From the IMG/VR virus record IMGVR_UViG_3300011862_000003: 64,000 nt of DNA, one strand, 5' to 3'. Each line of letters begins with the position of its first letter. Positions within the stretch are counted from its first letter, which is position 1. This DNA is from an uncultured virus (IMG/VR IMGVR_UViG_3300011862_000003). Lineage: Duplodnaviria > Heunggongvirae > Uroviricota > Caudoviricetes. The notes beneath the pieces were generated by a model. It had not been told where the DNA came from. It worked only from the letters and a program-made list of their open reading frames with translations, and made no database searches. Both the position numbers and the translations under genes were made by a program. Below are positions 3,182 through 16,863 of the stretch, piece by piece.

Positions 3182-3577
3182 TTAAGCGTATTTAGTTTGA
3201 ATTTCGTTGAACTTAGTTACAGTTTTGTCTTTAAGAATAATTACTTTCTCTTTTAAATCAGACATTGTCCATTTAGGTGGATAGTTAATCCAGATAACTG
3301 TACCATCAGCCAACACTTTACGTTTTTTATAGCCGATCAGCATAGCTGCAGCAGTGAGAGTTAATGTCATAAAGAACGCAGAGAATGTAGAAATGATTAC
3401 ACCGCTGATTGTTCCAGACAATCCCATGTAAAGCATAATACCAACACCATATAGTAGATCTACCCACATCTTATAACCTAAGAAGGTCTTCAGATAATGG
3501 GTATCTACAGATGCAAGGATTACAAGGATCTCTATTGCAGATAAAACAGAAACGACTACTAGTAATGTAGTCGACAT
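3182..3577 (-). CDS. membrane protein (about 3 TM helices)
   Basis: Hydrophobic segments in translation. Confidence 0.75.
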   Translation of the reverse strand: MSTTLLVVVSVLSAIEILVILASVDTHYLKTFLGYKMWVDLLYGVGIMLYMGLSGTISGVIISTFSAFFMTLTLTAAAMLIGYKKRKVLADGTVIWINYPPKWTMSDLKEKVIILKDKTVTKFNEIQTKYA

Positions 3578-3817: not shown

Positions 3818-4050
3818 GACAGAGTTACCTCTTTAAAAAGTGTTTGAAAAGGAGTGTGTTACAAGTTACAACAGTTTTGATAGAACTGGGCCCTAGTCCC
3901 ATCATATAGAGAGGTTAGGTGGTAACCTCAACTATCTTAATAATTTTTAAACCAAGACTATCAATTTTTAACCATGCTGATTGATAGTCTTTTTCTATAA
4001 TAGTAATTGTTGTTGGTAGTTTATCAATAGCTACCACAGTTACATTAAAT

Positions 4051-4794
4051 TTAGGCATTGTGTTCATCACGGATGTCATTAAACTGACCATCGAGAACTT
4101 TACGAACTTCTGCCATTACAGTCTTTTGGATTAGACGATGAATGTATTTTTCATTGGAGAGTAAGGCTTCAGTGATACTGTCATGCACTTCTCCGTTGAA
4201 ATCAAATACTTCAACTTCTGCATTCTTAACCTGATCAATAAGGACAGGAATATTTAGTTCTGGAAGAATCTTAGTAACAGCTGAAGGTAAAGTTGTTAAT
4301 TCAGGTACTTTAATAGCACCGGCGACAGCTTCTACTACAGATACAGGTATACCTGCTTCTTTAGATTCTTTTTTAACTTTACGATCTTTAACCTTAACAG
4401 TTTTACGTACAAGTTTAATTAAGATACTAAGAGGTAATTTAATTTCTTTACCATCTACAGTAAAGGTAGCATGAGTGGTATCTATTTTAGTTGGTTCTAA
4501 ATAAGCAGTACCAATAGCAAAACCATATTCATTACTAGACTTAATTACGAATCCATCAGCATTTTCAGAACGTACACCTTTGGCTTCATAGCCTTGTACA
4601 TTGATTAAAGAACGAACTGGGATCCAATGACGAGGACCAGAACCAAAGCGAACAGATGCAGAGGTACCTTCAATTTCTACAACAAGAACTTCTTTACCAA
4701 TGAGAAAGTTTTTCTCTTGAGGAAATTTAGATACATTTTGTACTGTGTATTTTTTCTGAGTCTTTACTATAGAATCAGTATAGATAATAGACAT
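4051..4794 (-). CDS. hypothetical protein, possible N-terminal SH3-like beta-barrel
   Basis: GKEVLVVEIEGTSASVRFGSGPRHWIPVRSL resembles an SH3/KOW-type pattern; AGGA RBS. Confidence 0.7.
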   Translation of the reverse strand: MSIIYTDSIVKTQKKYTVQNVSKFPQEKNFLIGKEVLVVEIEGTSASVRFGSGPRHWIPVRSLINVQGYEAKGVRSENADGFVIKSSNEYGFAIGTAYLEPTKIDTTHATFTVDGKEIKLPLSILIKLVRKTVKVKDRKVKKESKEAGIPVSVVEAVAGAIKVPELTTLPSAVTKILPELNIPVLIDQVKNAEVEVFDFNGEVHDSITEALLSNEKYIHRLIQKTVMAEVRKVLDGQFNDIRDEHNA

Positions 4795-4814
4795 AGTATA
4801 AGTCCTATTGTGAA

Positions 4815-4868
4815 GTAATAATCCACAGATAGGATCGAATTAATCCAATCCTATCAATTGAGTATTAC
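4815..4868 (-). repeat. AAUU/UGUG structured intergenic element, copy 1
   Basis: Minus strand: GTAATACTC AATT GATAGGAT T GGA TTAA TTC G ATCCTATC TGTG GATTATTAC. Confidence 0.9.
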
Positions 4869-6274
4869 GCTGTAGCTGGTAGAACTACATGTACAGGTGT
4901 TTGTACGTGACCGGATTTAGCAATAGCTGCTGCTTTTGCAATAGCTTCTTGTTCCATTTGTTTAGCTTGTTCTGGAGAAACATCAATACGATCTTCTGCT
5001 TCAGTTTTAATGAACCAAGATTTAATCCAAGCACCAAAGCGTTTCATTTGTTTCCAAATGTTTGTGAAGAATGATTTGATACCTTTGTAGACACCTTTAA
5101 AGAATTCTACAATTTTACCATTTTTCTTTACTTGTACATCACCAGTTTCTTTATGTACTATTACTGATTCATTATCAGTAGTAGGTACTTCGAATGTACC
5201 AACAGATTCATCCTGAGCTCCAGATAAAGCAGAAGCCATAGCATGTACAGATGATTCTGTATTAGTCTTTTTATATTTCTCATTTACTTTAGCGAGAATT
5301 TTATCGACCATATGAGCATTATCAAACTTAGCATGAAGCTCAGGTTGAGAATACTTAGTAGTAGCAGTAAGGATACCCACTTTATCTACTGTTACACGAT
5401 TTGGATTATCAAGATCATGTAAAGATTTATAGAAGGCATCAGCCCAGCTACGTACTTTAGTACCTAATTCAGAACGAAGACTTAATAGTTCTTCACCATC
5501 AAATGCATCATTCATGCGAAGTAATACTTTTTCAATATCAGCCATATAAGGAATATGGAATGCAATATTGTGATCTACAGGGATAGCTACAGTTTCAGTA
5601 GCACCAGATACAGTGTGTTCTGCAATAGCCTGAGCAGTAGCAGTTACTTGAGTTTGTACTTCTGGTTTAATTGTTACTTGATTGGTAGTATTTTCAGTTG
5701 TCATTTCTTTCACCAGTTCTTGTTGTGTTTGTTCAGGAATTACTACTTCAGTTTCATTAGCATCAAGTTCAGATAGGCCGTCAATAGTAACAGCATTACC
5801 TTCTTGAGCAGTAGCTACAGCTTCAGTAATTTCAGCAATTGTTGGTTCAACTACTGGAGCAGGTTGATCAGGAGTTTTGTTAGTCGCTACTGGAGTAGTT
5901 TTCTTAGCAGCATTAGTACGTTTAGCCATAATTGGATCCTCATCATTATCGATTAAATTTTGAATGATTGCTGGCACTAGATGCCAATGTGGAAATTCTT
6001 TCTTTGTACGTTCTAATGTAGAATAGATTGTTTGATTAGAAAGAACTCCTGTAGGATCTTCTTTAATCGTATTAGCGTTAATACTAATCTTTACATTATT
6101 GTACAATTCACTGACAAACTTTTTTAAGTCTTCTAAGAGTTTAGCCTGTGAAGTTGGTGATTGATTGATAGGTTGTTTCATTTGACGAAGACAACCTTCA
6201 ATGTTTGCGTGTGATACTGCTAAGGCAGAATAGATATCTAGCCTTTCATTTCTAGGTTTTGGTTGTTTACTCAT
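4865..6274 (-). CDS. hypothetical protein, 469 aa, T/E/A/P-rich linker
   Basis: ORF with GGAGG RBS; possible internal start at 5929. Confidence 0.8.
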   Translation of the reverse strand: MSKQPKPRNERLDIYSALAVSHANIEGCLRQMKQPINQSPTSQAKLLEDLKKFVSELYNNVKISINANTIKEDPTGVLSNQTIYSTLERTKKEFPHWHLVPAIIQNLIDNDEDPIMAKRTNAAKKTTPVATNKTPDQPAPVVEPTIAEITEAVATAQEGNAVTIDGLSELDANETEVVIPEQTQQELVKEMTTENTTNQVTIKPEVQTQVTATAQAIAEHTVSGATETVAIPVDHNIAFHIPYMADIEKVLLRMNDAFDGEELLSLRSELGTKVRSWADAFYKSLHDLDNPNRVTVDKVGILTATTKYSQPELHAKFDNAHMVDKILAKVNEKYKKTNTESSVHAMASALSGAQDESVGTFEVPTTDNESVIVHKETGDVQVKKNGKIVEFFKGVYKGIKSFFTNIWKQMKRFGAWIKSWFIKTEAEDRIDVSPEQAKQMEQEAIAKAAAIAKSGHVQTPVHVVLPATA

Positions 6275-6295
6275 GAGTATCCCTCCAAACGTCCC

Positions 6296-6778
6296 TTATC
6301 GAGACGTTATATACTTAATTTTAACACCAGCATCCTTAGCTAATTTGATAGTACTTTGATATAAGTGACGATCTAATTTGTGTTGTTTATGCTCACCTTT
6401 ATAGATAAGAACAACATCAGATAGAGTACCACCATAACCATAGATACTAAATACAGAAGAGAGTAAGAGATCTTGATCCTCTTGTTCCCACTTCTTCATA
6501 TTAGGGAAGGACTGTAAAGCAATTTTATAAGCTTGAAGCTTTTGCTCTTCAGTTGGTGTTGGTAATTTCATTGTGAGTCCATAGAACTCATGAGATGGTA
6601 GATACATAAGTACCATATCATTATCAATGTTAACAGGACTATCAGCTCCACCATTACCATTAAAACGGATAGCATTTCCCATATCTAGAATACATTGAAC
6701 TACACCAGATATGTATAAACGATTATCACGTTTTAAATAGTAAGGAAGAATGAGAGTAGCAATAGCTATATCATCCAT
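6296..6778 (-). CDS. hypothetical protein
   Basis: ORF with AAGGAGG RBS. Confidence 0.75.
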   Translation of the reverse strand: MDDIAIATLILPYYLKRDNRLYISGVVQCILDMGNAIRFNGNGGADSPVNIDNDMVLMYLPSHEFYGLTMKLPTPTEEQKLQAYKIALQSFPNMKKWEQEDQDLLLSSVFSIYGYGGTLSDVVLIYKGEHKQHKLDRHLYQSTIKLAKDAGVKIKYITSR

Positions 6779-6902
6779 CTAATGCCTCCTTAATTTGTTT
6801 AAGGGTTGATAGTTCCACATGTTCAATAGGTAGTGCATAAGTCAGTACTTCTTCCAAAGTAGCGTCAGTCCAATTACCTAAATAACGGATAGGATCTTTC
6901 AT
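6771..6902 (-). CDS. small hypothetical protein, 43 aa (MKDPIRYLGNW...), not in ORF track
   Basis: ATGA overlap with upstream stop; fills the gap exactly. Confidence 0.6.
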   Translation of the reverse strand: MKDPIRYLGNWTDATLEEVLTYALPIEHVELSTLKQIKEALDG

Positions 6903-7225
6903 TTATTAGTTCCATGTAAAATGCGTAGATAAGATTTACCTAGCTTTGTTTTGAGAAATTCTTGATGTTGCTCTGCAAGTTGATTACGTTTTCTATCATT
7001 GTATTCAGATACAAATTGATCAAAAGGAAGTAATGGTAACTTATCGATTTCAGATTGAGGTGCATCTGAATCTTTAGGATTAAAGAATTCAAATAAAGGT
7101 GGACGTTCACCTCTTTGTACATATGGTTGAATATCACGATTATAAACTGTGGATGCTACACGAATAAGTATAAAAATACCCATTAAAGTAGCAGCACCTA
7201 CAGTCATTAAACCAAAGAATATCAT
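6899..7225 (-). CDS. protein with N-terminal membrane anchor
   Basis: Hydrophobic N-terminus; GGAGGT RBS. Confidence 0.75.
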   Translation of the reverse strand: MIFFGLMTVGAATLMGIFILIRVASTVYNRDIQPYVQRGERPPLFEFFNPKDSDAPQSEIDKLPLLPFDQFVSEYNDRKRNQLAEQHQEFLKTKLGKSYLRILHGTNK

Positions 7226-7377
7226 TTAACCTCCACATCATTTGCATGATCAAAATAATACCCATGAGTCCAGCAACTATACCATCCTTTAAACTTACAC
7301 CAGATTGTATAACGATCCTTAAAATAAAGAATGTTATCTCGAGTTATACGTAAGACACGAATAGTTCCTTCAGGCAT
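7222..7377 (-). CDS. small hypothetical protein, 51 aa (MPEGTIRVLR...), not in ORF track
   Basis: AGGAGG RBS; overlaps both neighbours translationally. Confidence 0.65.
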   Translation of the reverse strand: MPEGTIRVLRITRDNILYFKDRYTIWCKFKGWYSCWTHGYYFDHANDVEVK

Positions 7378-7645
7378 TTATAGCCTCCTTAGAACGTTTA
7401 AAGGTATTGGTAGCAGATTGCTTTTGTTCACGTAACCAATAATCAGGAAGTGTGAAACCATTTTCTATAGCTTTGTTATAATCTGTAGTGATGTCAAGAT
7501 AAGCAAGAGTACATACACCTTTCTCACTTACTTTACCAACAGGTTTAACATAGTGAAGATATGGACGTTTTTCCATAGATTCTTGTATAGCTTTAATAGC
7601 AACAACAGCTTCTTTACTATGAGCTTGAATAATAAATGTACTCAT
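7370..7645 (-). CDS. hypothetical protein (start moved to MSTFII)
   Basis: AGGAG RBS before 7645; the longer ORF start lies inside the hairpin element. Confidence 0.7.
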   Translation of the reverse strand: MSTFIIQAHSKEAVVAIKAIQESMEKRPYLHYVKPVGKVSEKGVCTLAYLDITTDYNKAIENGFTLPDYWLREQKQSATNTFKRSKEAINA

Positions 7646-7664
7646 AAGAGTATCTCCTAGTGTG

Positions 7665-7714
7665 TAATAGACCACATATACCATCTCCTAAGAAATGGTA
7701 TAAATTGTATATTA
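7665..7714 (-). repeat. AAUU/UGUG element, copy 2
   Basis: TAATATAC AATT TATACCAT T TC TTAG GA G ATGGTATA TGTG GTCTATTA. Confidence 0.9.
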
Positions 7715-8530
7715 ATCTTGAGTAATATCAACTAATGGTGATTGACCATAGAAAGCACGAATAGCTTTAACAAATGATACAGGTAAAGCTTCTTTACGAG
7801 CAGTATCCAGTAAAGTATCAGTAGACTTTAATACATGTGCTACTTTAATTTGACTTGCAGATATTTCACGCCCATCTTTATGAATACCATTTAGATAGTG
7901 AATGCTAAAGAAGTTTTCGTTTTCTTCGTCAGTAAAGAATGGTTCAGGGTTACTGAATTCAGAAGGGATAATAGTCCAATTGAAGTATTCAACAGATGAA
8001 CGAGCCTCTGTAGGTACATCATTAGCATCTACATGACGAATTTCTACGATTGGATCTATAGGGTCTTCTTCATTTTCATCTTTAGGGAACCACTTAGCTT
8101 CGAAAGCTTCAGATGCTTCTTCTTCATCACCGAAGATACAAGCTGCATCAGCAAGAGGTTTAAGAAGTTTAAGTGTTACACGTTCAGCTGCTTGGATACA
8201 TTCAGTTAAATACTCTTCATTAATACTGATGATAACTTCATCATCAGTTTTAGTCAGAGTGGCAACCTTAGTAGCTTTCTCTTTAATGTTAGAAAAGAAT
8301 GGAAGCTTAGTAGCAAATTCTTCAGCTTGTTTCAGAGCTTGTTTAGCTTTGTCAGCTCGGTATTGTTCTACAGGAATATCAAGAACTTCAGCATTTTTGA
8401 TAATAGATTTTTCTTCCTGAGCTTTAAGACCTTTATGAGTCTTTGAAATTTCACGAACATTTAAAGCAACAGTAGCCATTGAAGAAGCAACAGCATTAAG
8501 AAGATTAGCAGACATAGTAAGTTTTAACAT
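7712..8530 (-). CDS. hypothetical protein, 272 aa
   Basis: ORF with AAGGA RBS. Confidence 0.8.
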   Translation of the reverse strand: MLKLTMSANLLNAVASSMATVALNVREISKTHKGLKAQEEKSIIKNAEVLDIPVEQYRADKAKQALKQAEEFATKLPFFSNIKEKATKVATLTKTDDEVIISINEEYLTECIQAAERVTLKLLKPLADAACIFGDEEEASEAFEAKWFPKDENEEDPIDPIVEIRHVDANDVPTEARSSVEYFNWTIIPSEFSNPEPFFTDEENENFFSIHYLNGIHKDGREISASQIKVAHVLKSTDTLLDTARKEALPVSFVKAIRAFYGQSPLVDITQD

Positions 8531-8565
8531 GAGATATTTCCTTATGGAAGTTAGTTACAAAAGAG

Positions 8566-8618
8566 GTAATAGACCACATATACATACTCGTGAAGAATAT
8601 GTATAAATTGTATATTAC
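8566..8618 (-). repeat. AAUU/UGUG element, copy 3
   Basis: GTAATATAC AATT TATACATA T TC TTCAC GA G TATGTATA TGTG GTCTATTAC. Confidence 0.9.
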
Positions 8619-8995
8619 TTACCGAGGGAGAGTTTAGTACTAAATGCTAAAGCTAAGCCACCTGATACAGCTATACGTTTAGTGATGGCTTTCAGTTTAG
8701 AGTCAGCTGTTAACCAACCAGTAGATACACCAATAGAACATAATACTTTAAGAGGACTATGAGCAGGAGCAAGCAAAACCCCTTTAGCTAAATACTGTAC
8801 TAATGTATGTTCATTTTTATCAAGAGCAAGAGAACTACAATAAAGATTAATAGCAGTATTAACTGTCTTGGCAACGTTAGGTTCCATGTTCTTTAATAAT
8901 GCAGGACTAGTTAAATCCTCTGCTATTGGTTTAAGATAAGTAATAAGTAATTGAGAAACAGCAAAAACTTTAGACTTAAGAAGAGTAGCTGACAT
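8615..8995 (-). CDS. hypothetical protein, possibly membrane-associated
   Basis: GAGGT RBS; hydrophobic C-terminus. Confidence 0.7.
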   Translation of the reverse strand: MSATLLKSKVFAVSQLLITYLKPIAEDLTSPALLKNMEPNVAKTVNTAINLYCSSLALDKNEHTLVQYLAKGVLLAPAHSPLKVLCSIGVSTGWLTADSKLKAITKRIAVSGGLALAFSTKLSLGK

Positions 8996-8998
8996 GAG

Positions 8999-9139
8999 TT
9001 ATACCTCTGGAATTTGAATTACTGTAGTAACGAATTTATTAGGATAATACTCAGCACACTTACGACGAGCATGTTGAGACGAATTACCTTCTATTACCCA
9101 TGTACTAAGATCATAAAAAGTAATTAAATATTTATACAT
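8999..9139 (-). CDS. small hypothetical protein, 46 aa (MYKYLITFYD...), not in ORF track
   Basis: GGTGAG RBS; stop lies next to the RBS of the following gene. Confidence 0.55.
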   Translation of the reverse strand: MYKYLITFYDLSTWVIEGNSSQHARRKCAEYYPNKFVTTVIQIPEV

Positions 9140-9227
9140 AATCTCACCCGTTGAAAGGCAGAGCGCGAGCGCGAACCTTTCTCCGTCCGATTGTGGTGGT
9201 GGTTGAGAGGGTATTGGTACGATTGTG

Positions 9228-9737
9228 CTAAATTATGATCTTAGCTAATTCAAAACTGAAAGATTTTATGTCGGAGTTATCTAACACATTCTCAATACGT
9301 TTCAAATGAATCATTCCAGGATAATGCTGATGCAAATAAAGTAAAGCTTCTTTATATAGATTCTTACCTACTTGAGCTATAGCCCAATTATCACAGAACA
9401 ATTCTAAATCCATACCAGGAGCCATTGCTTGCCCTTCTTTAGTCCAATGAGCCATCTCATGGTAAACTAAAATATCAGTAATATGTTTAGGAATGGTACG
9501 ATCCCAAGTATAATTAATGATTATAATGACATGTTGGTTATCCACATATGATGCCATTTGAGGTAAATAGTGAGCACCAATACGTTTCACAATTACATCA
9601 TCAGCACGAATAATAGAATAGAGTTCTGTCTCTTCTATAGGTACTGCAGACATATGAGAACCACCAATAATACGTTCCACTTGTTCTTGGAATGCATTAA
9701 AGAAGTAAGCACCAAAGTTAAATCCAATACGATTCAT
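9228..9737 (-). CDS. putative zinc metallopeptidase (HEXXH)
   Basis: LVYHEMAH followed by ELFCD; GGAG RBS before MNRIG. Confidence 0.65.
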   Translation of the reverse strand: MNRIGFNFGAYFFNAFQEQVERIIGGSHMSAVPIEETELYSIIRADDVIVKRIGAHYLPQMASYVDNQHVIIIINYTWDRTIPKHITDILVYHEMAHWTKEGQAMAPGMDLELFCDNWAIAQVGKNLYKEALLYLHQHYPGMIHLKRIENVLDNSDIKSFSFELAKIII

Positions 9738-9755
9738 AAGAATCTCCAATGACTA

Positions 9756-9805
9756 ATAAACCACAATAGGATACGAGCCGAAACCCATATCCTATAATTG
9801 TTTAT
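9756..9805 (-). repeat. AAUU/UGUG element, copy 4 (UUCG loop)
   Basis: ATAAAC AATT ATAGGATA T GGGT TTCG GCTC G TATCCTAT TGTG GTTTAT. Confidence 0.9.
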
Positions 9806-10233
9806 CAGATAGTTTCAAATAGATTAAGAGCATGTTTGATAATACTCTCTTTCAGTTTGTTACGACCAATAGTAGGAACACCTTCGAAATCATTCTTAAC
9901 ACAAGTTACTACTTGTTGATAATAAGCCATTTCATTCGGAGTTTCATCACGCATGATTGCGCTCTGTTTGTTCCACATTGCAATTAAGTGTCCTATGATA
10001 ACGTTGTAGCTATCAGTAGGAGAAACCTCCTCAGAGAAGCTTACAAGCTCATCTAGAGCACTTGTGAGATGAACCCAACCCTGTTGTGATGCCATGTGAG
10101 TAAGAAGTTCTTTCCCAGCATCAACAGTATTGAGAGTAGTCTTACTAGATCCATCAAATCCAAAGGTAGCAAAAAGATTTTTACGACCCCAAGAATTCTG
10201 TGTAAATAGTAAGTTACCAAATTTATCAGACAT
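9805..10233 (-). CDS. hypothetical protein
   Basis: AGGAGG RBS. Confidence 0.75.
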   Translation of the reverse strand: MSDKFGNLLFTQNSWGRKNLFATFGFDGSSKTTLNTVDAGKELLTHMASQQGWVHLTSALDELVSFSEEVSPTDSYNVIIGHLIAMWNKQSAIMRDETPNEMAYYQQVVTCVKNDFEGVPTIGRNKLKESIIKHALNLFETI

Positions 10234-10237
10234 AGAA

Positions 10238-10324
10238 TTATCCTCCTATTAGTTGTCCGATGACTAAAAGCAACATAAGAATTAAAGCCACGATAGAATT
10301 ACCTATTGCACGTCTTAACCACAT
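10238..10324 (-). CDS. 28 aa hydrophobic peptide (MWLRRAIG...), not in ORF track
   Basis: AAGGA RBS; single TM-like segment. Confidence 0.45.
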   Translation of the reverse strand: MWLRRAIGNSIVALILMLLLVIGQLIGG

Positions 10325-10350
10325 AATACATCCTTGTACATAGCCAAAGA

Positions 10351-10494
10351 TTAAAGAGGGCCAGTACGCTCACGAAGAGTATAATGGCAAGAAGGAGTAA
10401 GTTCAGCAGTACATCGTTTATTTTCTTTATAAGCTATAACACCTAAACCAATAAGAGTTATGATAAGACCTAAGATTATATATCTGTCATTCAT
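10351..10494 (-). CDS. 47 aa membrane-anchored peptide (MNDRYIILG...), not in ORF track
   Basis: Overlaps upstream stop; GGAG RBS; TM segment. Confidence 0.55.
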   Translation of the reverse strand: MNDRYIILGLIITLIGLGVIAYKENKRCTAELTPSCHYTLRERTGPL

Positions 10495-10669
10495 CTGATT
10501 TCTCCACTACTTTACAATTATAAACTTCATTTGTATCTGGATTGAACTCACAATCTATATCAATATCTAATATAAATTTACGATCCTGAACAGGAGTAGA
10601 ATTAACTAATACCATTGCATTAGTAACAGAAGTTGAAATACAAATAATAAAAATTACTATGAGTTTCAT
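10487..10669 (-). CDS. small secreted protein
   Basis: Signal-peptide-like N-terminus; ATGA overlap. Confidence 0.6.
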   Translation of the reverse strand: MKLIVIFIICISTSVTNAMVLVNSTPVQDRKFILDIDIDCEFNPDTNEVYNCKVVEKSDE

Positions 10670-10875
10670 CGTTTAACCTTAAGTACTTTCATGAGATGAG
10701 AGAAAATTGTATATACAACATTTAGTATAACAAATGTACAAACCATAGTAAGAGCTAATAGAAATACCATTTCAATAACATGAATTTCATCACATTTAGC
10801 TACACGTGTTACTAGATTTAAAAACCAATAAGCTAATAAGATTTCTAATACAGTATATTGAGGTTTAATTAACAC
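10666..10875 (-). CDS. small membrane protein
   Basis: Two hydrophobic segments; GGAGG RBS. Confidence 0.55.
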   Translation of the reverse strand: MLIKPQYTVLEILLAYWFLNLVTRVAKCDEIHVIEMVFLLALTMVCTFVILNVVYTIFSHLMKVLKVKR

Positions 10876-11132
10876 GGGAGAGCCTCCAAGATATTAGCAA
10901 CAGAACTATAACCACCAGCAGTCATACGGTAACCAGGATGTTTCTTGTAATTAGTATGAGTGGTATGGTTAGTGAATTTAGTAAGAGACACGATAATATC
11001 GTATTCATGTGCATTACTTACAGGTTTATGATGCTTTGATTGATCATCCAATACATCAATAGCCATCTCAGTATAACGCTGACGAAGCTTATGAGAATGT
11101 TCTCTTCTTAAACCAACAACTAAAACTTTCAT
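10869..11132 (-). CDS. DUF2325-like small alpha/beta protein
   Basis: KVLVVG ... DIIVSLTKFTNH pattern; GGAG RBS. Confidence 0.55.
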   Translation of the reverse strand: MKVLVVGLRREHSHKLRQRYTEMAIDVLDDQSKHHKPVSNAHEYDIIVSLTKFTNHTTHTNYKKHPGYRMTAGGYSSVANILEALPC

Positions 11133-11155
11133 GTGTTTCTCCAATGAGATAAGTA

Positions 11156-11202
11156 ATTAATACACATATAGGAACCGTATAGATTCCTATAAATTTATTA
11201 AT
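11156..11202 (-). repeat. AAUU/UGUG element, copy 5
   Basis: ATTAATA AATT TATAGGAA T C TATAC G G TTCCTATA TGTG TATTAAT. Confidence 0.9.
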
Positions 11203-11593
11203 GACGACAAACTTTACGATACATAATAGTATCTAATTTAGATAACGGCTTGACATCCGTAGCTTTAATACCTTTCTTAGTTAGATCAGTATAAGAACTT
11301 TTTCCAAAATAAGGTACTTTGTGAATGCCAAGTTTAATAATCATCTTTTCGTTACATTCAAGTGCAACATAATCACTCTCCAATGAATATTTCTGTTTAC
11401 CATTAATAAAGAATTTAGTAGTACTATAATAGGCAAATCCATCATAGTGTTTAACTTCCTTAGGTCGATAGTATATCTCTTTATCTGCTTCTTTAGTTAC
11501 AAGAACAAAGCCTTCCTCCTTTAATATCTGTTGAGGAGTTTTAGCTCCCGCAATAGTAGATACTAAGAATAAAGATACTATTAGATATTTCAT
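11198..11593 (-). CDS. secreted/periplasmic protein (start moved to MKYLIV)
   Basis: Signal peptide MKYLIVSLFLVSTIAGA; two Cys that could form a disulfide. Confidence 0.7.
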   Translation of the reverse strand: MKYLIVSLFLVSTIAGAKTPQQILKEEGFVLVTKEADKEIYYRPKEVKHYDGFAYYSTTKFFINGKQKYSLESDYVALECNEKMIIKLGIHKVPYFGKSSYTDLTKKGIKATDVKPLSKLDTIMYRKVCRH

Positions 11594-11651
11594 AGCCATA
11601 GCCTTACAGTTAATACACATATACCTACTCATATGAATAGGCATAAATTTA

Positions 11652-11861
11652 TTAACGAGTGATACTAAATGTTGGAGCATGAATACTGTCAACAAATAAT
11701 TTACGAAGACGAGGTGTACGTCGATTTTTATATACGTCCTTTGATACTGAATACACAGCACCTATAACATCATCTTTAAGATAGACTTTACCTGTTTCTG
11801 AGTAAGGTGGAAGCTTAACCATCTTACCATTTAGTAAGACTAGTAGTTTGATCATTTTCAT
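11652..11861 (-). CDS. hypothetical protein
   Basis: ATGA overlap with upstream gene; AAGGTG RBS. Confidence 0.6.
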   Translation of the reverse strand: MKMIKLLVLLNGKMVKLPPYSETGKVYLKDDVIGAVYSVSKDVYKNRRTPRLRKLFVDSIHAPTFSITR

Positions 11862-12073
11862 AGATCACCTTTCTGTACAGCAGATTCAAAATAAGAGTAT
11901 AACCAATCATAAAAAGCTTTAGGAGGTTCTTTCTTAACTTGAGTGCGTACCTCTTTAGTTGCCCATTTATTGAAGTGAGACTTAAACATGGCATCGGGCC
12001 ATTGCTTTCTATAACCACGTTCATATTGAACATAGAGGCAGTAAGCATAGAAATCAGATTCAGAGAATATCAT
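11858..12073 (-). CDS. hypothetical protein
   Basis: ATGA overlap; AGGAG RBS. Confidence 0.65.
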   Translation of the reverse strand: MIFSESDFYAYCLYVQYERGYRKQWPDAMFKSHFNKWATKEVRTQVKKEPPKAFYDWLYSYFESAVQKGDL

Positions 12074-12723
12074 GAAGCAATCTCCTGTTGATATACTACT
12101 TTAAAAAATTTAGGAATATCGTATAACCATTCATGAGGATTGGTATAGATAAGTTTATTTTGTTTAGAAGCATTAATAGATACAGGTAAGCATTGAAAAT
12201 TATTCCAAACATGTAATCCACAAACAGTAGAATTTTGAAGAGGTATCATATGATCAACATGCCATTTAAAACTGAATAAAGATTCTCTTAATTTATTTAA
12301 AGACACAGCTTCTGTAAATACAAAATCAGTTAATTCACTTGAAATACTCATATTCGCACATTTTCGAATAGCGTGTCTTTTACTCATGTAAGCTTTAATT
12401 AAATTCGGATTATCTTTTCTCCAACGCATTGTACTTGCTTTAACAATTTCTGGAACACGTTTACGTCTACGTTTAGCTTTTTCATTTATCTTATCTGGAT
12501 TAGATTGTCTCCATTTCTTATTTCGAACAGCAACCTTTTCAGGATTATCTTTTTGCCATTGGCTCTTCCAATTGTTTCTATACTCTGCGCAGAGTATACA
12601 TAAGCAATCGCTATTTGAAATTTGTCTCGGAGATATAAAACCTCTTTTACAAATAGAGCCACTAAAATAAGTTTTAAAACCACGCTCTTTAGCTATAGCT
12701 CTAGGAATAGGTACAAAAAACAT
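12070..12723 (-). CDS. HNH homing endonuclease
   Basis: WHVDHMIPL...CGLHVWNNFQCL...NASKQN; N-terminal Cys pairs and W-x-x-x-NP repeats; GAGGT RBS. Confidence 0.9.
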   Translation of the reverse strand: MFFVPIPRAIAKERGFKTYFSGSICKRGFISPRQISNSDCLCILCAEYRNNWKSQWQKDNPEKVAVRNKKWRQSNPDKINEKAKRRRKRVPEIVKASTMRWRKDNPNLIKAYMSKRHAIRKCANMSISSELTDFVFTEAVSLNKLRESLFSFKWHVDHMIPLQNSTVCGLHVWNNFQCLPVSINASKQNKLIYTNPHEWLYDIPKFFKVVYQQEIAS

Positions 12724-12748
12724 AATAACCTCTACAACAATAAAACAA

Positions 12749-12793
12749 ATATACCACATATACTACCCATATAGAGTAGTATAAATTGTATAT
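12749..12793 (-). repeat. AAUU/UGUG element, copy 6
   Basis: ATATAC AATT TATACTAC T C TATAT G G GTAGTATA TGTG GTATAT. Confidence 0.9.
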
Positions 12794-12803
12794 CTAATCT
12801 TCT

Positions 12804-13034
12804 TTACTTCTTAGCGTCTTCACGACCATGTTCATATCCCAGATCAAATATAGAACTATGATTAGAATTAAGACCATCTTTAATTTTCTTAACACCATTT
12901 TTACCATCAAGATATGCCATGTCGTAGACACTACGCTCTTGTTGGCAAACTATACAAGGATGCAATCTCTTTTTACAATTAGAACAAGAGAAACTTACAA
13001 ATCGTTTACCATGCACAATACGAATAGAAATCAT
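12804..13034 (-). CDS. small zinc-binding protein
   Basis: CSNC and CIVC motifs; GGAGG RBS. Confidence 0.65.
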   Translation of the reverse strand: MISIRIVHGKRFVSFSCSNCKKRLHPCIVCQQERSVYDMAYLDGKNGVKKIKDGLNSNHSSIFDLGYEHGREDAKK

Positions 13035-13035
13035 C

Positions 13036-13314
13036 TTAATCCCCTCCAGTTAATTCATCAGGTGATATACGAGTACAATTTTTACAACGACTGTCAGGAA
13101 ATAAATATGGAACAACAGTACCACATTCATAACATTCAAAATGATTGGGTTCAAATTGTTGCACCCACACAAGAGCAGCTTCAACATGAGTAGAAGTATA
13201 CTCAAAGTCTGCATTCTCTTTTAAATACTTAGTAAGATCTTCTTCATTTCGTAAGCTCTTATTATTAAGTACAATATCACAGATTCTATAATAAGAATGA
13301 CTAGTTAGAGCCAT
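13036..13314 (-). CDS. zinc-ribbon protein
   Basis: CYEC...CKNC; AAGGAG RBS. Confidence 0.7.
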   Translation of the reverse strand: MALTSHSYYRICDIVLNNKSLRNEEDLTKYLKENADFEYTSTHVEAALVWVQQFEPNHFECYECGTVVPYLFPDSRCKNCTRISPDELTGGD

Positions 13315-13324
13315 TGTATTCTCC

Positions 13325-13537
13325 TTAATCTAATTGAATATACCCAGCTGGAAGTTTAATACCTTTGTAGAAATGATCTTTAATTACACGATCTACAATA
13401 TTACCAGCCTCATTTTGATATTCCCATTCAGAAATATTAACTTGATAACAAGCACTAACACCATAATCAGAACCATCTTTCTCTAACTCTGATTCAGTAT
13501 TAATGTAATCACCTTCCATTAAATATAAAGTAATCAT
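13325..13537 (-). CDS. hypothetical protein
   Basis: AGGGA RBS. Confidence 0.65.
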   Translation of the reverse strand: MITLYLMEGDYINTESELEKDGSDYGVSACYQVNISEWEYQNEAGNIVDRVIKDHFYKGIKLPAGYIQLD

Positions 13538-13549
13538 AGTTTTCCCTAT

Positions 13550-13606
13550 GTTAAATAATCCACATATAGCATCTCATATAGAAATGCTATAAATTGATTA
13601 ATTAAC
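13550..13606 (-). repeat. AAUU/UGUG element, copy 7
   Basis: TAATC AATT TATAGCAT T TC TATAT GA G ATGCTATA TGTG GATTA. Confidence 0.9.
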
Positions 13607-14083
13607 TATAACTGTATAGTCACAATTAATACAATTATAATACTCATAATAAGCTGAGCAGTGACTGAATGTTGTACCATGACCACAACGAGCACAACGG
13701 AATGTCTCTTGACCTTGATTAAGGCGATAGAGATTATCAACATCTTCCTTAAGTTTCTCTGGTATTTCATTATAAAATACAAAAGGTGCTTCAAGATTTA
13801 ACTCTTTACAAGCTTCTTGTAAATCATCAGTGAAATATACACCTTTTTTTTCTAAGTCTATAAGATGATATAGCCTTTCATTAGACAATACATCTTCATT
13901 AAACTTATTAAAGAAAGCTTTCCAACCATCCATACGAGCAGGAAGATAGTTTGCTGGATCTTGATTTGTATTCCAAAGAGGGTGGAACATATATAGATCT
14001 ACATCCCCAGCTGAACGATCAACTGAACTCATATACCATTCTCTTGCAATAGCTTCTTCTAGCTCATTTAGTTTAAAAAGCAT
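13598..14083 (-). CDS. protein with C-terminal zinc ribbon (start moved to MLFKLN)
   Basis: CARC...CINC; AGGAG RBS. Confidence 0.7.
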   Translation of the reverse strand: MLFKLNELEEAIAREWYMSSVDRSAGDVDLYMFHPLWNTNQDPANYLPARMDGWKAFFNKFNEDVLSNERLYHLIDLEKKGVYFTDDLQEACKELNLEAPFVFYNEIPEKLKEDVDNLYRLNQGQETFRCARCGHGTTFSHCSAYYEYYNCINCDYTVIVN

Positions 14084-14109
14084 GACATATCTCCTGTTCT
14101 TTGTCATTT

Positions 14110-14166
14110 TTAATTAACCACATATACTACCTCTTACTATGAGAAGTAGTATAAATTGTTAATTAA
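14110..14166 (-). repeat. AAUU/UGUG element, copy 8
   Basis: TTAATTAAC AATT TATACTAC T TCT CATAGTA AGA G GTAGTATA TGTG GTTAATTAA. Confidence 0.9.
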
Positions 14167-14447
14167 GGAATGAGAGCATAAACTGCTTCCATCGCTTTGA
14201 AGTTGCCCTCACAAGGTGAGACAGTCTTGTAGTATACATCACTATCCATATCAACAACGATGTAGATATCACCCAGTTCAGGATGACGACCTATCAATGT
14301 TAGCTCCCCATACTCTTCTTCAAGGACACGGAGTAGGTCTCCAATATCCTTTAGAGGCTTACCATCCAAATCTGAACAGTAATCTTGACCTTTATCTTCA
14401 AATGGAAGTACATCAGTTAAGAATTGGATAGCTTCTTGCTTGTTCAT
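14163..14447 (-). CDS. hypothetical protein (start moved to MNKQEA)
   Basis: AGGAG RBS. Confidence 0.7.
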   Translation of the reverse strand: MNKQEAIQFLTDVLPFEDKGQDYCSDLDGKPLKDIGDLLRVLEEEYGELTLIGRHPELGDIYIVVDMDSDVYYKTVSPCEGNFKAMEAVYALIP

Positions 14448-14478
14448 TGTATTTCTCCTATAGAAAATGAACGTATAT

Positions 14479-14532
14479 AAATAATCCACATAAGAGATCA
14501 GATCTTGACCTAATCCCTTAAATTGATTATTT
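14479..14532 (-). repeat. AAUU/UGUG element, copy 9
   Basis: AAATAATC AATT TAAGGGAT T AGGT CAAG ATCT G ATCTCTTA TGTG GATTATTT. Confidence 0.9.
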
Positions 14533-14760
14533 CATTGATAAATAGTTATCCCATTCATCAAATATACCGTCTGTATTAGGTTGAACATCTAATACATGAG
14601 TACGGTCTTTGTTTAGAAGATAGCAAGTAATACCTTCTTTAGTATCATAGAGATCTATAACATAATACTGATTACGGTATTCCTCATTATCCCCATCATA
14701 GCCTTTAACGCTATTGTGTAGGGTAAATCCCCATTTACTGAGGAAGTCCATTAATGTCAT
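14527..14760 (-). CDS. hypothetical protein
   Basis: AAGGAG RBS. Confidence 0.7.
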   Translation of the reverse strand: MTLMDFLSKWGFTLHNSVKGYDGDNEEYRNQYYVIDLYDTKEGITCYLLNKDRTHVLDVQPNTDGIFDEWDNYLSMK

Positions 14761-14788
14761 ATAGGTCTCCTTAAGAACCTTAAATTGA

Positions 14789-15100
14789 TTATTTAGTGAC
14801 TACACGTGTAACCATGATAATATGGCCTTTATCATTTCGAAGTGCAGTACTACCTGTATCAGGGGCAAAAGCTACACCAGAATATGAGCTATCTAATGCA
14901 TCTAGTACCATAGAAGATACTAGAAAATAACCAGATTCAGGAAGACCTGTTACTTTACCAGCTTTCCGAGAGATAACTGGAGTGCCACATGGTAGTACAA
15001 TTGGAAGTGCCTCTTCTTCCATCTCAACACGAGCAACTGTGCCTGATGGCTCGTAAACTACACCATTAATATTAATAGCATGAGGTGTTAAATTAATCAT
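14789..15100 (-). CDS. conserved-looking phage hypothetical protein (MINLTPH...)
   Basis: NLTPH...PSGTVARV...GLP...VSSMV...APDTG pattern recalled from phage hypotheticals; AGGAG RBS. Confidence 0.75.
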   Translation of the reverse strand: MINLTPHAININGVVYEPSGTVARVEMEEEALPIVLPCGTPVISRKAGKVTGLPESGYFLVSSMVLDALDSSYSGVAFAPDTGSTALRNDKGHIIMVTRVVTK

Positions 15101-15132
15101 GACATATCTCCTATAAGTGTCATTAAAAAGAA

Positions 15133-15182
15133 AATTAACCACATAAGGATACTACCGAAGTAATACCCTTAAATTGTTAATT
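15133..15182 (-). repeat. AAUU/UGUG element, copy 10 (cUUCGg loop)
   Basis: AATTAAC AATT TAAGGGTA T TAC TTCG GTA G TATCCTTA TGTG GTTAATT. Confidence 0.9.
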
Positions 15183-15377
15183 ATTCAGTGTATCAAGGAT
15201 ATATTGAACATCCCCTACACCATTGAAATTACTTCCATTATAGAAGACCATTCCAATCTTATGACCTTTATTATAGACAGTGGTCTCTGTCTTTTTCATC
15301 TCTTCGATGAACCCAGGGTAAATAGATAGTAATGTACAATTACCTGGTCTGTCTTTCAATACAAGACGTATAGTCAT
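15177..15377 (-). CDS. hypothetical protein (start moved to MTIRLV)
   Basis: AAGGAG RBS. Confidence 0.7.
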   Translation of the reverse strand: MTIRLVLKDRPGNCTLLSIYPGFIEEMKKTETTVYNKGHKIGMVFYNGSNFNGVGDVQYILDTLNN

Positions 15378-15400
15378 ACTGTTCTCCTTGAACATTGTTA

Positions 15401-15445
15401 AATAACCACATATGAGAGCTGCTTGAACTCTCATAAATTGTTATT
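15401..15445 (-). repeat. AAUU/UGUG element, copy 11
   Basis: AATAAC AATT TATGAGAG T T CAAGC A G CTCTCATA TGTG GTTATT. Confidence 0.9.
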
Positions 15446-15773
15446 CTACATGTGGCATCCAAGCTAATACTAGCTCTTCACCTGAGTCTTCATCAACGTG
15501 AAGAGAACCCAGATCTGTGACAGACACAATATGCCTATCCTCATTATTAATGGTAATAATGAAATCTAAATTCAAAACTGCAACCCAAACATCTGATGTA
15601 GTTCTGAATGGGTTAAGAATTGCATCTTTAGTCCATTCTTCAGATTTATTCACAATGGATGCTAAATCACAAAGTGTCTCATCAAATGAGAAAACTACTG
15701 GAACATCTGATGGTTTGTGGATTGATACATCAGATACTGGAGTCCAGTCGATTTTACCTTTAGATACTAACAT
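15441..15773 (-). CDS. hypothetical protein
   Basis: AGGAG RBS. Confidence 0.75.
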   Translation of the reverse strand: MLVSKGKIDWTPVSDVSIHKPSDVPVVFSFDETLCDLASIVNKSEEWTKDAILNPFRTTSDVWVAVLNLDFIITINNEDRHIVSVTDLGSLHVDEDSGEELVLAWMPHVE

Positions 15774-16053
15774 TTTTATCTCCTATGATAGTTAGTCTTC
15801 AGAAGTAATCCCGAGGTCTTCAGACCCCAGATGCCCACCTGAGCAAACACCCAAGTGAACAACACCTCAAGATGTGGCATGAACCAAATATGGAACAAAC
15901 CACACCATTCACTAATTGAAAAGCATGAGCGAGGAGCGACCTCACATGACAGTAAGATCGGCTTATCATCTCAATTTTATATGTACCAATACGATGCTTT
16001 TTGCGGTATTTGATACGGAGTTTTGACCGTAGCGTAGCGGAGGTCATACGGAG

Positions 16054-16845
16054 TTACGGAGTACAGCGAGCAATAGCTTCCTGAAAATAACCATTTACAT
16101 AATGAGCAACAGGAATAAAGAACCAGTGACGAGGCTGTTCATCCATTAACTGATTAAAAGAGTTATGTACTTCAATACAGAATTGCTTAGCTGCAGCTTT
16201 ATCTTGATTAGTTACAAACTCACCTTTGTACTTATTCCATACCGCTTTCACAACACCAGCAACATCCTCACGACCACGAGTAGCCTTTAATTGCAGCCCT
16301 TTCTTAATTTCATTCACAAAGAACTGGAAATCTACAGTAGGTACATCTTGTACAGGCATAACATCCATAATCACATAATCATTTAATGTATCCTCTGCTA
16401 CATAGATATTATCTGGCATTGGTGGTACAGGGATATCACGAATAGCTTGTTCCATATCTTCAGGAACCCATAAGTCTTCCATAGTAGAAGGACCTTCCCA
16501 AGATGATACTGGTTTAGGTGGTTCAATCTTCTCCTGAACTAAGTTAGGGTTAACAATATCATAGCGACGACGAGGCTTGACTTTAAACTTATCAAGCACT
16601 GCATTACGTTTAACTGGTCGAGACATTTGTTCTTTAACCTCAGGTAATTCAACCTTAGCTTTAGTATCTACAAAGATTTCGATACCAGCTTTAGCTGCTA
16701 ATTGCTTATACCCAACAATAGAACGACATGCAGCTGTATAAAACTCTACAGCATCTTTAAGTTTATTTAATTCCTCAGTTGTTGCTGATACAACACGGTT
16801 TAATACATTACGAGGAGCCATTGTACGAGAAGCTAAAATAATCAT
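16054..16845 (-). CDS. hypothetical protein directly downstream of the RNAP-like gene (start moved to MIILAS)
   Basis: AGGA RBS; the longer start overlaps a terminator. Confidence 0.75.
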   Translation of the reverse strand: MIILASRTMAPRNVLNRVVSATTEELNKLKDAVEFYTAACRSIVGYKQLAAKAGIEIFVDTKAKVELPEVKEQMSRPVKRNAVLDKFKVKPRRRYDIVNPNLVQEKIEPPKPVSSWEGPSTMEDLWVPEDMEQAIRDIPVPPMPDNIYVAEDTLNDYVIMDVMPVQDVPTVDFQFFVNEIKKGLQLKATRGREDVAGVVKAVWNKYKGEFVTNQDKAAAKQFCIEVHNSFNQLMDEQPRHWFFIPVAHYVNGYFQEAIARCTP

Positions 16846-16863
16846 GATAATAATCCTATTAAT

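Follow-up and report, generated by a model that had tools for sequence, protein, structure and literature searches.

An intercistronic, covarying RNA hairpin repeated through the early arm of an uncultured jumbo phage resembles phage T7 RNase III sites and lies at mosaic gene boundaries

Conserved hairpins that lie between early genes or cistrons and shape the ends of mRNA are familiar from the RNase III sites in the early mRNA of the Bacillus phages SP82 and SPO1 and from REP-type stabilizers. According to the available text of PMC3867540 and PMC1540722, the ideal substrate of Escherichia coli RNase III is 22 bp long and at least 11 bp are required from the cut to the terminal loop. The distal box is described as a stringent U.G, with UA/UG as the canonical form, and a G-C pair at position 2 of the proximal box as blocking binding (PMC1540722, available text), while the distal box is not conserved across RNase III substrates in general (PMC3867540, available text). 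These criteria were defined on the T7 site R1.1 with the E. coli enzyme and may not match the preferences of the host of the phage studied here, which, as far as can be told, is not E. coli, the host of T7. A second kind of intergenic repeat, the promoter-early stem-loop (PeSL) of T4-type phages, consists of a terminator stem-loop, then a sigma-70-type -35/-10 promoter and then a Shine-Dalgarno sequence (PMC4122927).

We analyzed a window of 64,000 nucleotides (64 kb) from an uncultured virus of the Caudoviricetes (IMG/VR record IMGVR_UViG_3300011862_000003), the early arm of which carries what appears to be a new family of this familiar kind of signal, similar in architecture to the T7 sites that RNase III cuts. 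Scanning the 64 kb for the motif together with its pairing recovered 12 full elements at 4814-15449, all on the minus strand, which is the coding strand of the early arm; the sole extra match, a 7-of-8 hit at 25512-25568 on the plus strand, is attributed to chance. The 11 elements listed in a preliminary description of this DNA are all real, but its count was short, as it missed the copy at 11606-11659; one half copy is present besides the 12. With a covariance model (CM), which that description had proposed building, the 12 copies receive 56-68 bits; their own reverse strands come next (at most 21.7 bits), and unrelated sites reach at most 16.3 bits. The features are given below from the highest to the lowest coordinates, each full copy with its AATT..TGTG core in parentheses.

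15397-15449, minus strand: c15407 (core 15407-15439), upper stem of 10 bp, U.G at pair 9, loop CAAGC, structure recovered by folding, stop codon TAA (15441-15443) within the 5' arm; CM 62.3 bits
15130-15185, minus strand: c15140 (core 15140-15175), 12-bp upper stem, cUUCGg loop; CM 61.9 bits
about 14761-14791, minus strand: half copy, with a stop codon, the 5' arm of the lower stem, AATT and only 5 nt of the upper stem, from its start
14477-14534, minus strand: c14487 (core 14487-14524), 13-bp upper stem, loop CAAG; CM 63.0 bits
14109-14167, minus strand: c14119 (core 14119-14157), 12-bp upper stem, 7-nt loop; CM 66.4 bits, z = -6.6 versus shuffles
13551-13605, minus strand: c13561 (core 13561-13595); CM 68.0 bits, z = -5.55
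12745-12797, minus strand: c12755 (core 12755-12787), directly upstream of the EndoVII/HNH-like open reading frame (ORF) 12070-12726; CM 63.4 bits
11606-11659, minus strand: c11616 (core 11616-11649), the copy absent from the earlier list; CM 61.3 bits
11153-11205, minus strand: c11163 (core 11163-11195); CM 63.1 bits
9752-9809, minus strand: c9762 (core 9762-9799), first upper pair A-U, UUCG loop; CM 56.2 bits
8565-8619, minus strand: c8575 (core 8575-8609), upstream of ORF 7712-8530; CM 67.3 bits
7663-7716, minus strand: c7673 (core 7673-7706), downstream of ORF 7712-8530; CM 68.2 bits
4814-4869, minus strand: c4824 (core 4824-4859), the last of the array, first upper pair G-C, upstream of ORF 4051-4794; CM 64.2 bits

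Each hairpin is built from a lower stem of 7-9 bp (with one mismatch in 3 copies), an AAUU/UGUG internal loop, an upper stem of 10-13 bp (10 bp in three copies, 11 bp in four, 12 bp in three and 13 bp in two) and a terminal loop of 4-7 nt, giving 17-26 contiguous helix positions, or 20-26 if the lower-arm mismatch of the three copies is allowed. Single-sequence minimum free energy folds recover this structure in all 12 copies, with stabilities of -17 to -26 kcal/mol. AATT, TGTG and a U.G at pair 9 of the upper stem occur without exception in the window copies, the first upper pair varies (U-A in 10 copies, A-U in 1 and G-C in 1) and two loops are UUCG, all as the preliminary description had reported. 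Its observation that the stems differ between copies and stay paired also holds, with 96.8% of 216 cells paired against 64.8% in shuffles. Double changes occur at 17 of the 18 pairs, none of 500 shuffles reached the observed covariation values, and pairing falls to 34-46% once the 3' partner is shifted by 1-3 columns. Across 38 copies from 6 contigs, 97.0% of positions are paired and the internal-loop columns are invariant in 33-37 of the 38; pair 9 is U.G in 35 of 37 copies, pair 10 is U-A in 25 of 37 (7 of 12 in the window), and pair 3 is A/U in all 38 (U-A or A-U in the 12 window copies), while pair 11 is C-G in 5 of the 12. The wobbles form only on the coding strand, as had been claimed: the variable pairs of the window copies include 8 G.U and no A.C, and over the 38 copies the ratio of G.U/U.G to A.C/C.A is 30 to 0. 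This bias favors structure on the transcript strand, in line with the original claim of an RNA structure, and selection on structure at that level is supported.

The elements lie between the cistrons of a co-directional array of small early genes; their orientation always follows transcription, and every site comes after a stop codon and ahead of a Shine-Dalgarno sequence. Ten copies had been said to overlap or abut the upstream stop codon, and the overlap is confirmed with a corrected figure, the stop codon lying within the 5' lower arm in 11 of the 12; the sole exception is c12755, where the stop of the upstream gene comes 19 nt before AATT. The same arrangement is seen in 18 of 23 copies in other contigs. 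In all 12 window copies the next start codon follows the lower stem by 12-35 nt, which agrees with the earlier placement of the hairpins shortly before the next ribosome-binding site. The accompanying suggestion that they control translation reinitiation is left without specific support, since in no copy does the hairpin include the Shine-Dalgarno sequence.

Searches beyond the window with the CM, which had likewise been proposed at the outset, located the element in related phages and further afield. Two related jumbo-phage contigs hold 15 and 7 copies, and matches also occur in three unrelated smaller phage contigs (G003-G005, 41-46% GC) and a few metagenome contigs; the GC content of the phages that carry it spans 27-46%. 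In the GC-richer family members G004 and L362/L377, C-G replaces U.G. The CM finds no element in Acinetobacter phage ME3, the closest isolate, nor in bacterial genomes among the matches listed. Rfam 15 gave no match in the window at the gathering score, and over 4000-21300 at E ≤ 1 it gave only three chance-level matches (two miRNA families and one plastid group II intron family). No protein is common to all element-bearing contigs at a BLASTP threshold of 1e-5, and a phage RNase III was not found in G001, G002, G003, G005 or ME3; since unrelated phages carry the element, a conserved host enzyme fits these observations.

We compared the element with T7 sites that were folded alike, taking the helix positions of R1.1 from the numbering in the available text of PMC1540722 and from the folded T7 sequence. 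Both show the same stem-loop-stem form: the T7 sites R0.3, R0.5 and R1.1 likewise have an invariant internal loop (ACUC/UAUGA) between variable stems, and both types are intercistronic in an early polycistronic message, run to about two helical turns and have A/U pairs beside the loop; in R0.5, too, the lower 5' arm contains the stop codon of the gene upstream. The 7-9 bp, 4 loop positions and 10-13 bp of the window elements give a helix of about two turns (about 20-22 bp), with the internal loop at the expected target site, where it separates two covarying helices in each of the 12 copies, and the distance to the terminal loop reaches at least 11 bp when the U.U loop position is counted with the upper stem. 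The proximal box is free of the inhibitory G-C, with A/U at pair 3 and G-C at pair 1 in only 1 of 12 copies. The distal box, for which U.G with its U on the 5' strand is expected about 9-10 bp from the site, is likewise present, as the U.G at pair 9 of all 12, a feature that is not universal among RNase III substrates; in R1.1, helix position 9 is U.G, position 10 is U-A and position 11 is C-G, where the window elements have U.G at 9 and mostly U-A at 10. We consider this match suggestive, not diagnostic, because the distal box is not general, R0.5 has C-G instead of U.G at position 9, and G004, L362 and L377 have C-G as well. The differences from T7 are also clear. The loop is a symmetric 4x4 AAUU/UGUG rather than the 4/5 ACUC/UAUGA, the upper stem has 10-13 bp rather than 9-10 bp, and 12 copies occupy 10.6 kb compared with 5 (R0.3, R0.5, R1, R1.1 and R1.3) in about 7 kb. 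Unlike the T7 sites, the element occurs in several unrelated phages and at mosaic boundaries. We found no sequence homology to the T7 sites, and because both loop and stem sequences differ we regard the element as an analogue, not a homologue, of them.

We consider it reasonably probable that the hairpins are intercistronic processing and stabilizer sites of a host-RNase III type that double as recombination boundaries. They would form in a long early transcript made by host RNA polymerase, each offering host RNase III a substrate of about two turns. The AAUU/UGUG loop itself can form an A-U and a U.G pair, bordered by A.G and U.U; above it, four A/U-rich pairs would act as the proximal box, and the invariant U.G (pair 9) with the usual U-A (pair 10) as the distal box. 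Cleavage, the enzyme and the exact cut site are all predicted from the T7 analogy: as in R1.1, the loop would confine the enzyme to one strand and so direct a single cut inside UGUG, either in its middle (UG-UG) or before its last nucleotide (UGU-G). This would leave a protective hairpin at the 3' end of the upstream cistron and give the downstream cistron a free leader, rich in A/U, that begins 12-35 nt ahead of the start codon. The processing signal envisaged in the preliminary description is retained here in its RNA structure, its intercistronic place and its R1.1-type determinants, but the dedicated phage factor it had entertained is not, given the lack of a common protein or a phage RNase III and the coincidence of its "strict" features with generic RNase III determinants.

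It is quite improbable, in our assessment, that the hairpins remain uncut and act as REP-like barriers to 3' exonucleases (following RNase E cleavage of the A/U-rich spacer) or produce graded expression along the arm as weak terminators or pause sites. Their stability and their location after each stop codon would suit a stabilizer, yet such roles leave unexplained the invariant unpaired loop, the fixed U.G and a covarying lower stem, in which the "U-tract" would be base-paired. That no copy has a U-tract, as first described, holds strictly, although a lenient scan flags 4 of the 12 as terminator-like because the 3' arm is U-rich; the tail itself starts with UGUGG and is not U-rich. Twelve serial terminators with 12-35 nt to the next start would silence the arm, as promoters are not enriched (63 sigma-70-like sites found versus 85 expected), and those 12-35 nt leave no room for a promoter at the hairpins. 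We rejected an intrinsic (Rho-independent) terminator, which calls for a G+C-rich hairpin with a U-tract immediately behind it, as the upper stems are A/U-rich and the UGUGG tail then pairs with the 5' arm. Even less can be said for a selfish, mobile MITE-, REP- or PATE-like palindrome spreading between genes, or for a DNA-level site (recognized by a recombinase or homing endonuclease, or used by a phage polymerase as a hairpin promoter) with an incidental RNA role, which we hold to be very unlikely. The many copies, the half copies, the unrelated phage carriers and the mosaic-boundary location would fit such an element, and the window has HNH-type endonuclease genes at 12070-12726 and 21197-21826, with one HNH family common to the window, G002 and G003; the constant orientation with transcription, always between stop codon and Shine-Dalgarno sequence, and the wobble pairs on the sense strand only nevertheless argue against it, as does the lack of bacterial genomes among the matches listed. 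A Y1 (HUH) transposase (PF01797) was not found in G001, G002, G003, G005 or ME3, where the control was positive, nor a polymerase beta-like gene in G001, G002 or ME3. With no PF01797 in those five and every copy co-oriented with the genes, a palindrome derived from REP/RAYT or IS200/IS605 was rejected.

The AAUU-UAU/AUA-UGUG core is the most widely conserved part of the element, and to our knowledge RNase III does not require this sequence, so the core may point to another factor. An RNA-binding protein or an endoribonuclease other than RNase III, encoded by phage or host, could bind or cut there, or the loop could be catalytic, with the stems only presenting the core; we judge this unlikely. 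The near-invariant loop columns and the retention of the core even with GC-rich stems and a lost U.G (G004, L362 and L374) speak for such a factor, but T7 sites keep an invariant loop too, though RNase III cuts them. Two small early proteins (10869-11132 and 3182-3577) are present in the element-bearing relatives G001 and G002 and absent from ME3, which has no element; the sequence of one marks it as a membrane protein, however, and the other has a sub-threshold DUF2325 hint, and no protein is shared by all carriers. A 4x4 loop is also very small for a ribozyme, and no Rfam ribozyme matched. A bolder proposal, which we put forward as doubtful, sees the element as a portable cassette for "gene punctuation": an RNA-processing site with a core recognized by a dedicated nuclease or recombination factor, or itself reactive, that would carry small early genes between unrelated phages. 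If true, this would make the element an RNA-based counterpart of PeSLs and not a plain RNase III site.

For host-RNase III-type sites that double as recombination boundaries, the repeat of about 55 nt would itself be a crossover point through which phages lose, gain and rearrange gene cassettes, because the same sequence flanks many small genes. Four orthologous genes compared between the window and G001 keep the element on the same side while the order of the cassettes differs: the G001 ortholog of the gene upstream of c14119 keeps an element, those of the EndoVII/HNH-like ORF 12070-12726 and of ORF 4051-4794 are also preceded by one, and that of ORF 7712-8530 has elements on both sides. Contig joints of related strains fall within elements, which may be explained in part by the aligner assigning a short repeat to a different copy or by assembly breaks at repeats. 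As judged from these sequence comparisons, the element marks mosaic boundaries where relatives exchange genes. The preliminary description mentioned neither this role nor the occurrence in partly unrelated phages.

As far as the available descriptions of the PeSLs of T4-type phages go (PMC2839356, PMC4122927), the likeness extends to short repeated regulatory cassettes that lie in a plastic region, between early ORFs that are small and for the most part unknown, to a position beside indels or exchanges between relatives, and to degraded half copies. Unlike PeSLs, the element has only 12-35 nt from hairpin to start codon, no promoter consensus and a conserved internal loop; PeSL identity was thus rejected for want of the promoter, the placement at indel or exchange boundaries being shared. 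The half copy of the window (14761-14791), which the CM missed and which was read by eye from the sequence, is identical to the 5' half of c14487 and is fused directly to the Shine-Dalgarno sequence of the next gene.

The intergenic element of the early arm is genuine and represents an RNA hairpin family that has not been catalogued. A scan of the window for AATT, 16 to 49 nt and TGTG, in which 7 or more of the first 8 inner positions had to pair, returned 12 sites from 4824 to 15439, all on the minus strand, together with one 7-of-8 chance match on the plus strand. The preliminary description had counted 11 elements; all 11 were recovered, and that total was too low by one, the twelfth lying at 11616-11649. 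A looser pattern gave 57 matches where 114 were expected. MAFFT brought the 12 copies into register without editing (alignment A1), and in the resulting 18-pair structure 96.8% of 216 cells are paired, compared with 64.8% in shuffles. Both sides have changed in 17 of the 18 pairs, none of 500 shuffles reached any observed measure, and shifting the 3' partner by 1 to 3 columns reduces pairing to 34-46%, which confirms the earlier view that the stems vary from copy to copy and stay paired. AATT, TGTG and the U.G at upper pair 9, previously called invariant in the smaller set, are so in all 12 copies. RNAalifold gave the same fold with additional A-U and U.G pairs within the internal 'loop', and single-sequence folds recovered the consensus structure in every copy, with upper stems of 10-13 bp, terminal loops of 4-7 nt and energies of -16.9 to -26.0 kcal/mol; three copies folded against shuffled controls had z values of -2.8, -5.6 and -6.6.

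A covariance model and an Rfam search had been proposed as checks on the family. The model (R1), run over the whole window with no filters, gave the 12 copies 56-68 bits; next came the reverse complements of these sites (at most 21.7 bits), and unrelated sites reached at most 16.3 bits. No Rfam family matched anywhere in the window. We also read from the sequence a half copy at about 14761-14791, made up of the 5' arm and stop codon plus AATT and another 5 nt. Its bases are the same as those of the 5' half of c14487 (copies are named by the lower coordinate of the AATT..TGTG core), and it is joined straight to the next ribosome-binding site.

At variable pairs, the 12 copies of the window show 8 G.U and no A.C, and the 38 copies known from six contigs show 30 G.U/U.G and no A.C/C.A in an alignment fitted to a covariance model that favors G.U. 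The claim that wobbles form only on the coding strand is thus borne out, and the orientation of the element is fixed independently by the asymmetric AATT/TGTG. Because the wobbles are one-sided and the motif sets the orientation on its own, what is under selection is the single-stranded sense sequence, most simply mRNA.

The window has a G+C content of 33.8%. Its minus-strand genes, from about 39 to 21034, are mostly small ORFs with no PHROG or Pfam match, and a plus-strand arm starting at 21197 encodes an HNH endonuclease, endolysin, large terminase, portal and major capsid protein. The terminase shares 75.6% identity, across 98% of its length, with its counterpart in the 234.9-kb jumbo phage vB_AbaM_ME3 of Acinetobacter, and the next relatives fall to about 31% identity or below. 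A DNA similarity search with positions 4000-16000 found no nucleotide-level match among isolate phages, and no tRNA genes were found in the window.

Each element is tightly placed between two genes. The upstream stop codon lies 4-8 nt before AATT, within the 5' lower arm, in 11 of the 12 copies (19 nt before it in c12755), and the next gene, equipped with a Shine-Dalgarno sequence, starts 12-35 nt past the lower stem, in agreement with the earlier placement of the elements shortly before the next ribosome-binding site. According to the ORF list and the sequence, from 4.8 to 15.5 kb every gap longer than 25 nt contains an element, apart from 9140-9227 and the gap with the half copy. The former (minus strand, between ORFs 9228-9737 and 8999-9139) is an 88-nt GC-rich noncoding stretch in a 34% GC genome and is the array's sole long gap that lacks an element. 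No Rfam family matches this stretch, in which a GAAAGG...CCTTTC hairpin encloses a CGCGCTCGCGC core.

This arrangement bears on two conventional readings of an intergenic hairpin. A sigma-70 promoter in or after the hairpin is ruled out by spacing and by the absence of a consensus: the interval from hairpin to gene is too short for a -35/-10 promoter, and sigma-70-like sites are rarer than in shuffles (63 versus 85.2 +/- 9.6). The plus-strand sequence TATAAATT, which is T4-late-like, was set aside as a promoter, with no plus-strand genes beyond it and wobbles that favor the minus strand. Four of the 12 copies pass a lenient terminator rule, solely on account of their U-rich 3' arm.

A dedicated phage factor, which the preliminary description had entertained, finds no support among the genomes that carry the element. 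All-against-all BLASTP of the 1,656 ORFs of the six element-bearing contigs yielded no protein family common to all six; the sole linking family is HNH, which joins the window, G002 and G003. With a positive control, the RNase III domain PF14622 had no match in G001, G002, G003, G005 or ME3. The Y1 transposase family PF01797 likewise had no match in these five, and the RNA polymerase beta domain PF00562 had none in G001, G002 or ME3. Two small early proteins, from minus-strand ORFs 10869-11132 (87 aa, with a sub-threshold DUF2325 hint) and 3182-3577 (131 aa, plainly a membrane protein), are present in G001 and G002 and were not found in ME3, but because so few genomes are involved this co-occurrence with the element is weak. 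By terminase, the element-free ME3 is nonetheless the closer relative. The HNH/DUF723 protein of ORF 21197-21826 (plus strand) belongs to a family with 4 copies in G002 and a member in G003, an unrelated provirus.

Relatives of the element were found with a pattern-seeded scan of IMG/VR followed by the covariance model, and occur in at least the contigs given here.

Viral contigs other than the window that carry the element, with copies at E<=0.5
G001: 183.7 kb, 27% G+C; capsid protein 69% identical to that of the window; 15 copies
G002: 242.6 kb, 33% G+C; capsid protein 53% identical to that of the window; 7 copies
G003: 35-kb provirus, 44% G+C; no capsid or terminase similarity to the window; 1 copy
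G004: 10.6-kb fragment, 46% G+C; no capsid or terminase similarity to the window; 2 copies
G005: 62-kb contig with terminal repeats, 41.5% G+C; no capsid or terminase similarity to the window; 1 copy

With the window, these contigs hold at least 38 copies. Further pattern scans placed members in other viral contigs (L362/L377, L374 and L404) and, among the matches listed, in metagenome contigs (L430, L445, L448/L449 and L516). In bacterial and archaeal genomes, none of the 120 listed matches to an 18-base pattern passed the strict hairpin filter; among them locus L154, a near-miss under looser limits with 9 of 9 upper but 4 of 6 lower pairs, was left uncounted. No prior description of the element was found in the published literature. 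The element adds to phage biology an uncatalogued, strongly covarying RNA family with at least 38 copies in six phage contigs, more in metagenomes and none in Rfam. The pattern CAATTTATG...CATATGTGG gave 46 matches, of which most failed the hairpin filter; many were provirus-sized contigs (within L360-L405) with a non-hairpin match of equal length (33 nt), probably conserved coding sequence from a single prophage group, unrelated to the element.

Across the 38 copies 97.0% of cells are paired, with U.G at pair 9 in 35 of 37 copies and U-A at pair 10 in 25 of 37. GC-richer members have G+C-rich stems and replace U.G with C-G, yet they retain AATT-TAT...ATA-TGTG. Gene context was checked for 23 of the 26 copies outside the window, leaving out the three weakest: the upstream stop codon falls within the 5' arm in 18, and a Shine-Dalgarno sequence and start codon were recognized 10-72 nt downstream in 19. 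The internal loop can vary within one genome, as a sub-family in G001 (98380-98434, 97661-97717, 95531-95589 and 100181-100239) has 5x5 loops (AAUUA opposite UGYUG/UGCUA) in three of its four copies and keeps the U.G. The whole ME3 record contains no element match, and the best covariance-model score in 81,329 of its bases searched without filters was 18.4 bits; its intergenic gaps contain ordinary terminators and other hairpins. Directly before the gp150 ribosome-binding site, and just downstream of a classic terminator, ME3 carries a hairpin with about 19 bp and near-perfect pairing (record positions ~227120-227180, 42121-42181 in locus L002), a possible double-stranded RNA signal of another kind in this element-free relative.

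The closest known parallels are RNase III substrates. The sections of the Nicholson review (PMC3867540) drawn on here give 22 bp for an ideal E. coli substrate, describe loops or mismatches at the target site that restrict cutting to one strand and leave a protective 3' hairpin, count five such signals in the T7 early precursor of ~7000 nt, and report no conservation of the distal box among substrates. The portions of Pertzev and Nicholson 2006 (PMC1540722) that we used set a cut-to-loop minimum of 11 bp and a proximal box of 4 bp, in which G-C at position 2 abolishes binding and at position 4 abolishes cutting; the distal box requires U.G at its second position (canonical form UA/UG), and changing UG to GU or AU carries a more than 30-fold cost. 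From these numbers (pairs 9:30, 12:27 and 13:26, a 6-nt 5' product and a GCAA loop) and the T7 sequence, we infer that helix positions 9, 10 and 11 of the T7 site R1.1 are U.G, U-A and C-G. The window element has U.G, U-A and C-G at these upper pairs in 12, 7 and 5 of 12 copies, and by this inferred mapping shares the 'UUC...GAG' top of R1.1; its upper pairs 1-3 are all A/U save one G-C at pair 1. In our folds of the T7 early intergenic regions, R0.3, R0.5 and R1.1 each have a lower stem of about 9 bp, an upper stem of 9-10 bp and an identical internal loop, ACUC/UAUGA. R0.5 carries the gene 0.4 stop codon in its lower 5' arm, as the window element does its upstream stop, but has C-G at position 9 where the window element has U.G. 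Together with the reported lack of distal-box conservation, that C-G limits the comparison.

We consider it reasonably probable that the element serves as a host-RNase III-type processing and stabilizing site between early cistrons, the likeliest of its possible roles, with a cut predicted to fall inside UGUG. The copies would then form a natural substrate set of fixed geometry (U.G at pair 9, A/U proximal box, defined loop) that makes RNase III recognition rules testable outside E. coli.

A secondary role, as a boundary for gene-cassette exchange, is better documented. Seven early ORFs of the window have homologs in the G001 element array, in the order A, D, E, F, B, G, C versus A to G, and for four of them (14163-14449, 12070-12726, 7712-8530 and 4051-4794) the element is on the same side in both genomes, with stems that differ between the two. 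When contigs with related strains from four metagenome runs were aligned to the window, joints fell inside elements, among them 14126 to 15170 (separated by 22 other bases), 14131 to 15170, 12756 to 7666 and 14126 to 13587. One run had unjoined ends at 14095, 14106 and 15380 and left 14369-15019 uncovered. Some of this may come from the aligner, which can match a short repeat to the wrong copy, or from assemblies that break at repeats. The contig joints and the half copy resemble the exchange-boundary pattern of the promoter-early stem-loops (PeSLs) of T4-type phages (PMC4122927), in which, unlike in the window elements, a sigma-70 promoter follows the stem-loop. The element would also tie mRNA processing signals to modular early-gene exchange in ME3-like jumbo phages, akin to PeSLs in T4-type phages, and its covariance model can be used in annotation to flag gene boundaries and cassette junctions in their poorly understood early arms.

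Three other features of the minus-strand arm deserve mention. ORF 12070-12726 has a PHROG 'endonuclease VII' match at 1.3e-13 and an element on its upstream side; its G001 ortholog is 46% identical and likewise has an element before it. At the head of the arm, upstream of ORF 20726-20896, about 200 nt of partly GC-rich noncoding sequence (20898-21100, minus strand) may serve as leader or promoter region, or form a structured RNA; Rfam at E<=1 gave nothing inside it and a weak group II intron match just downstream, at 20724-20772. Between the hairpin array and the divergent promoter region lies ORF 16908-20630 (minus strand), which encodes a 1240-aa protein with no family match and with 26% identity over 924 aa to a G001 ORF.
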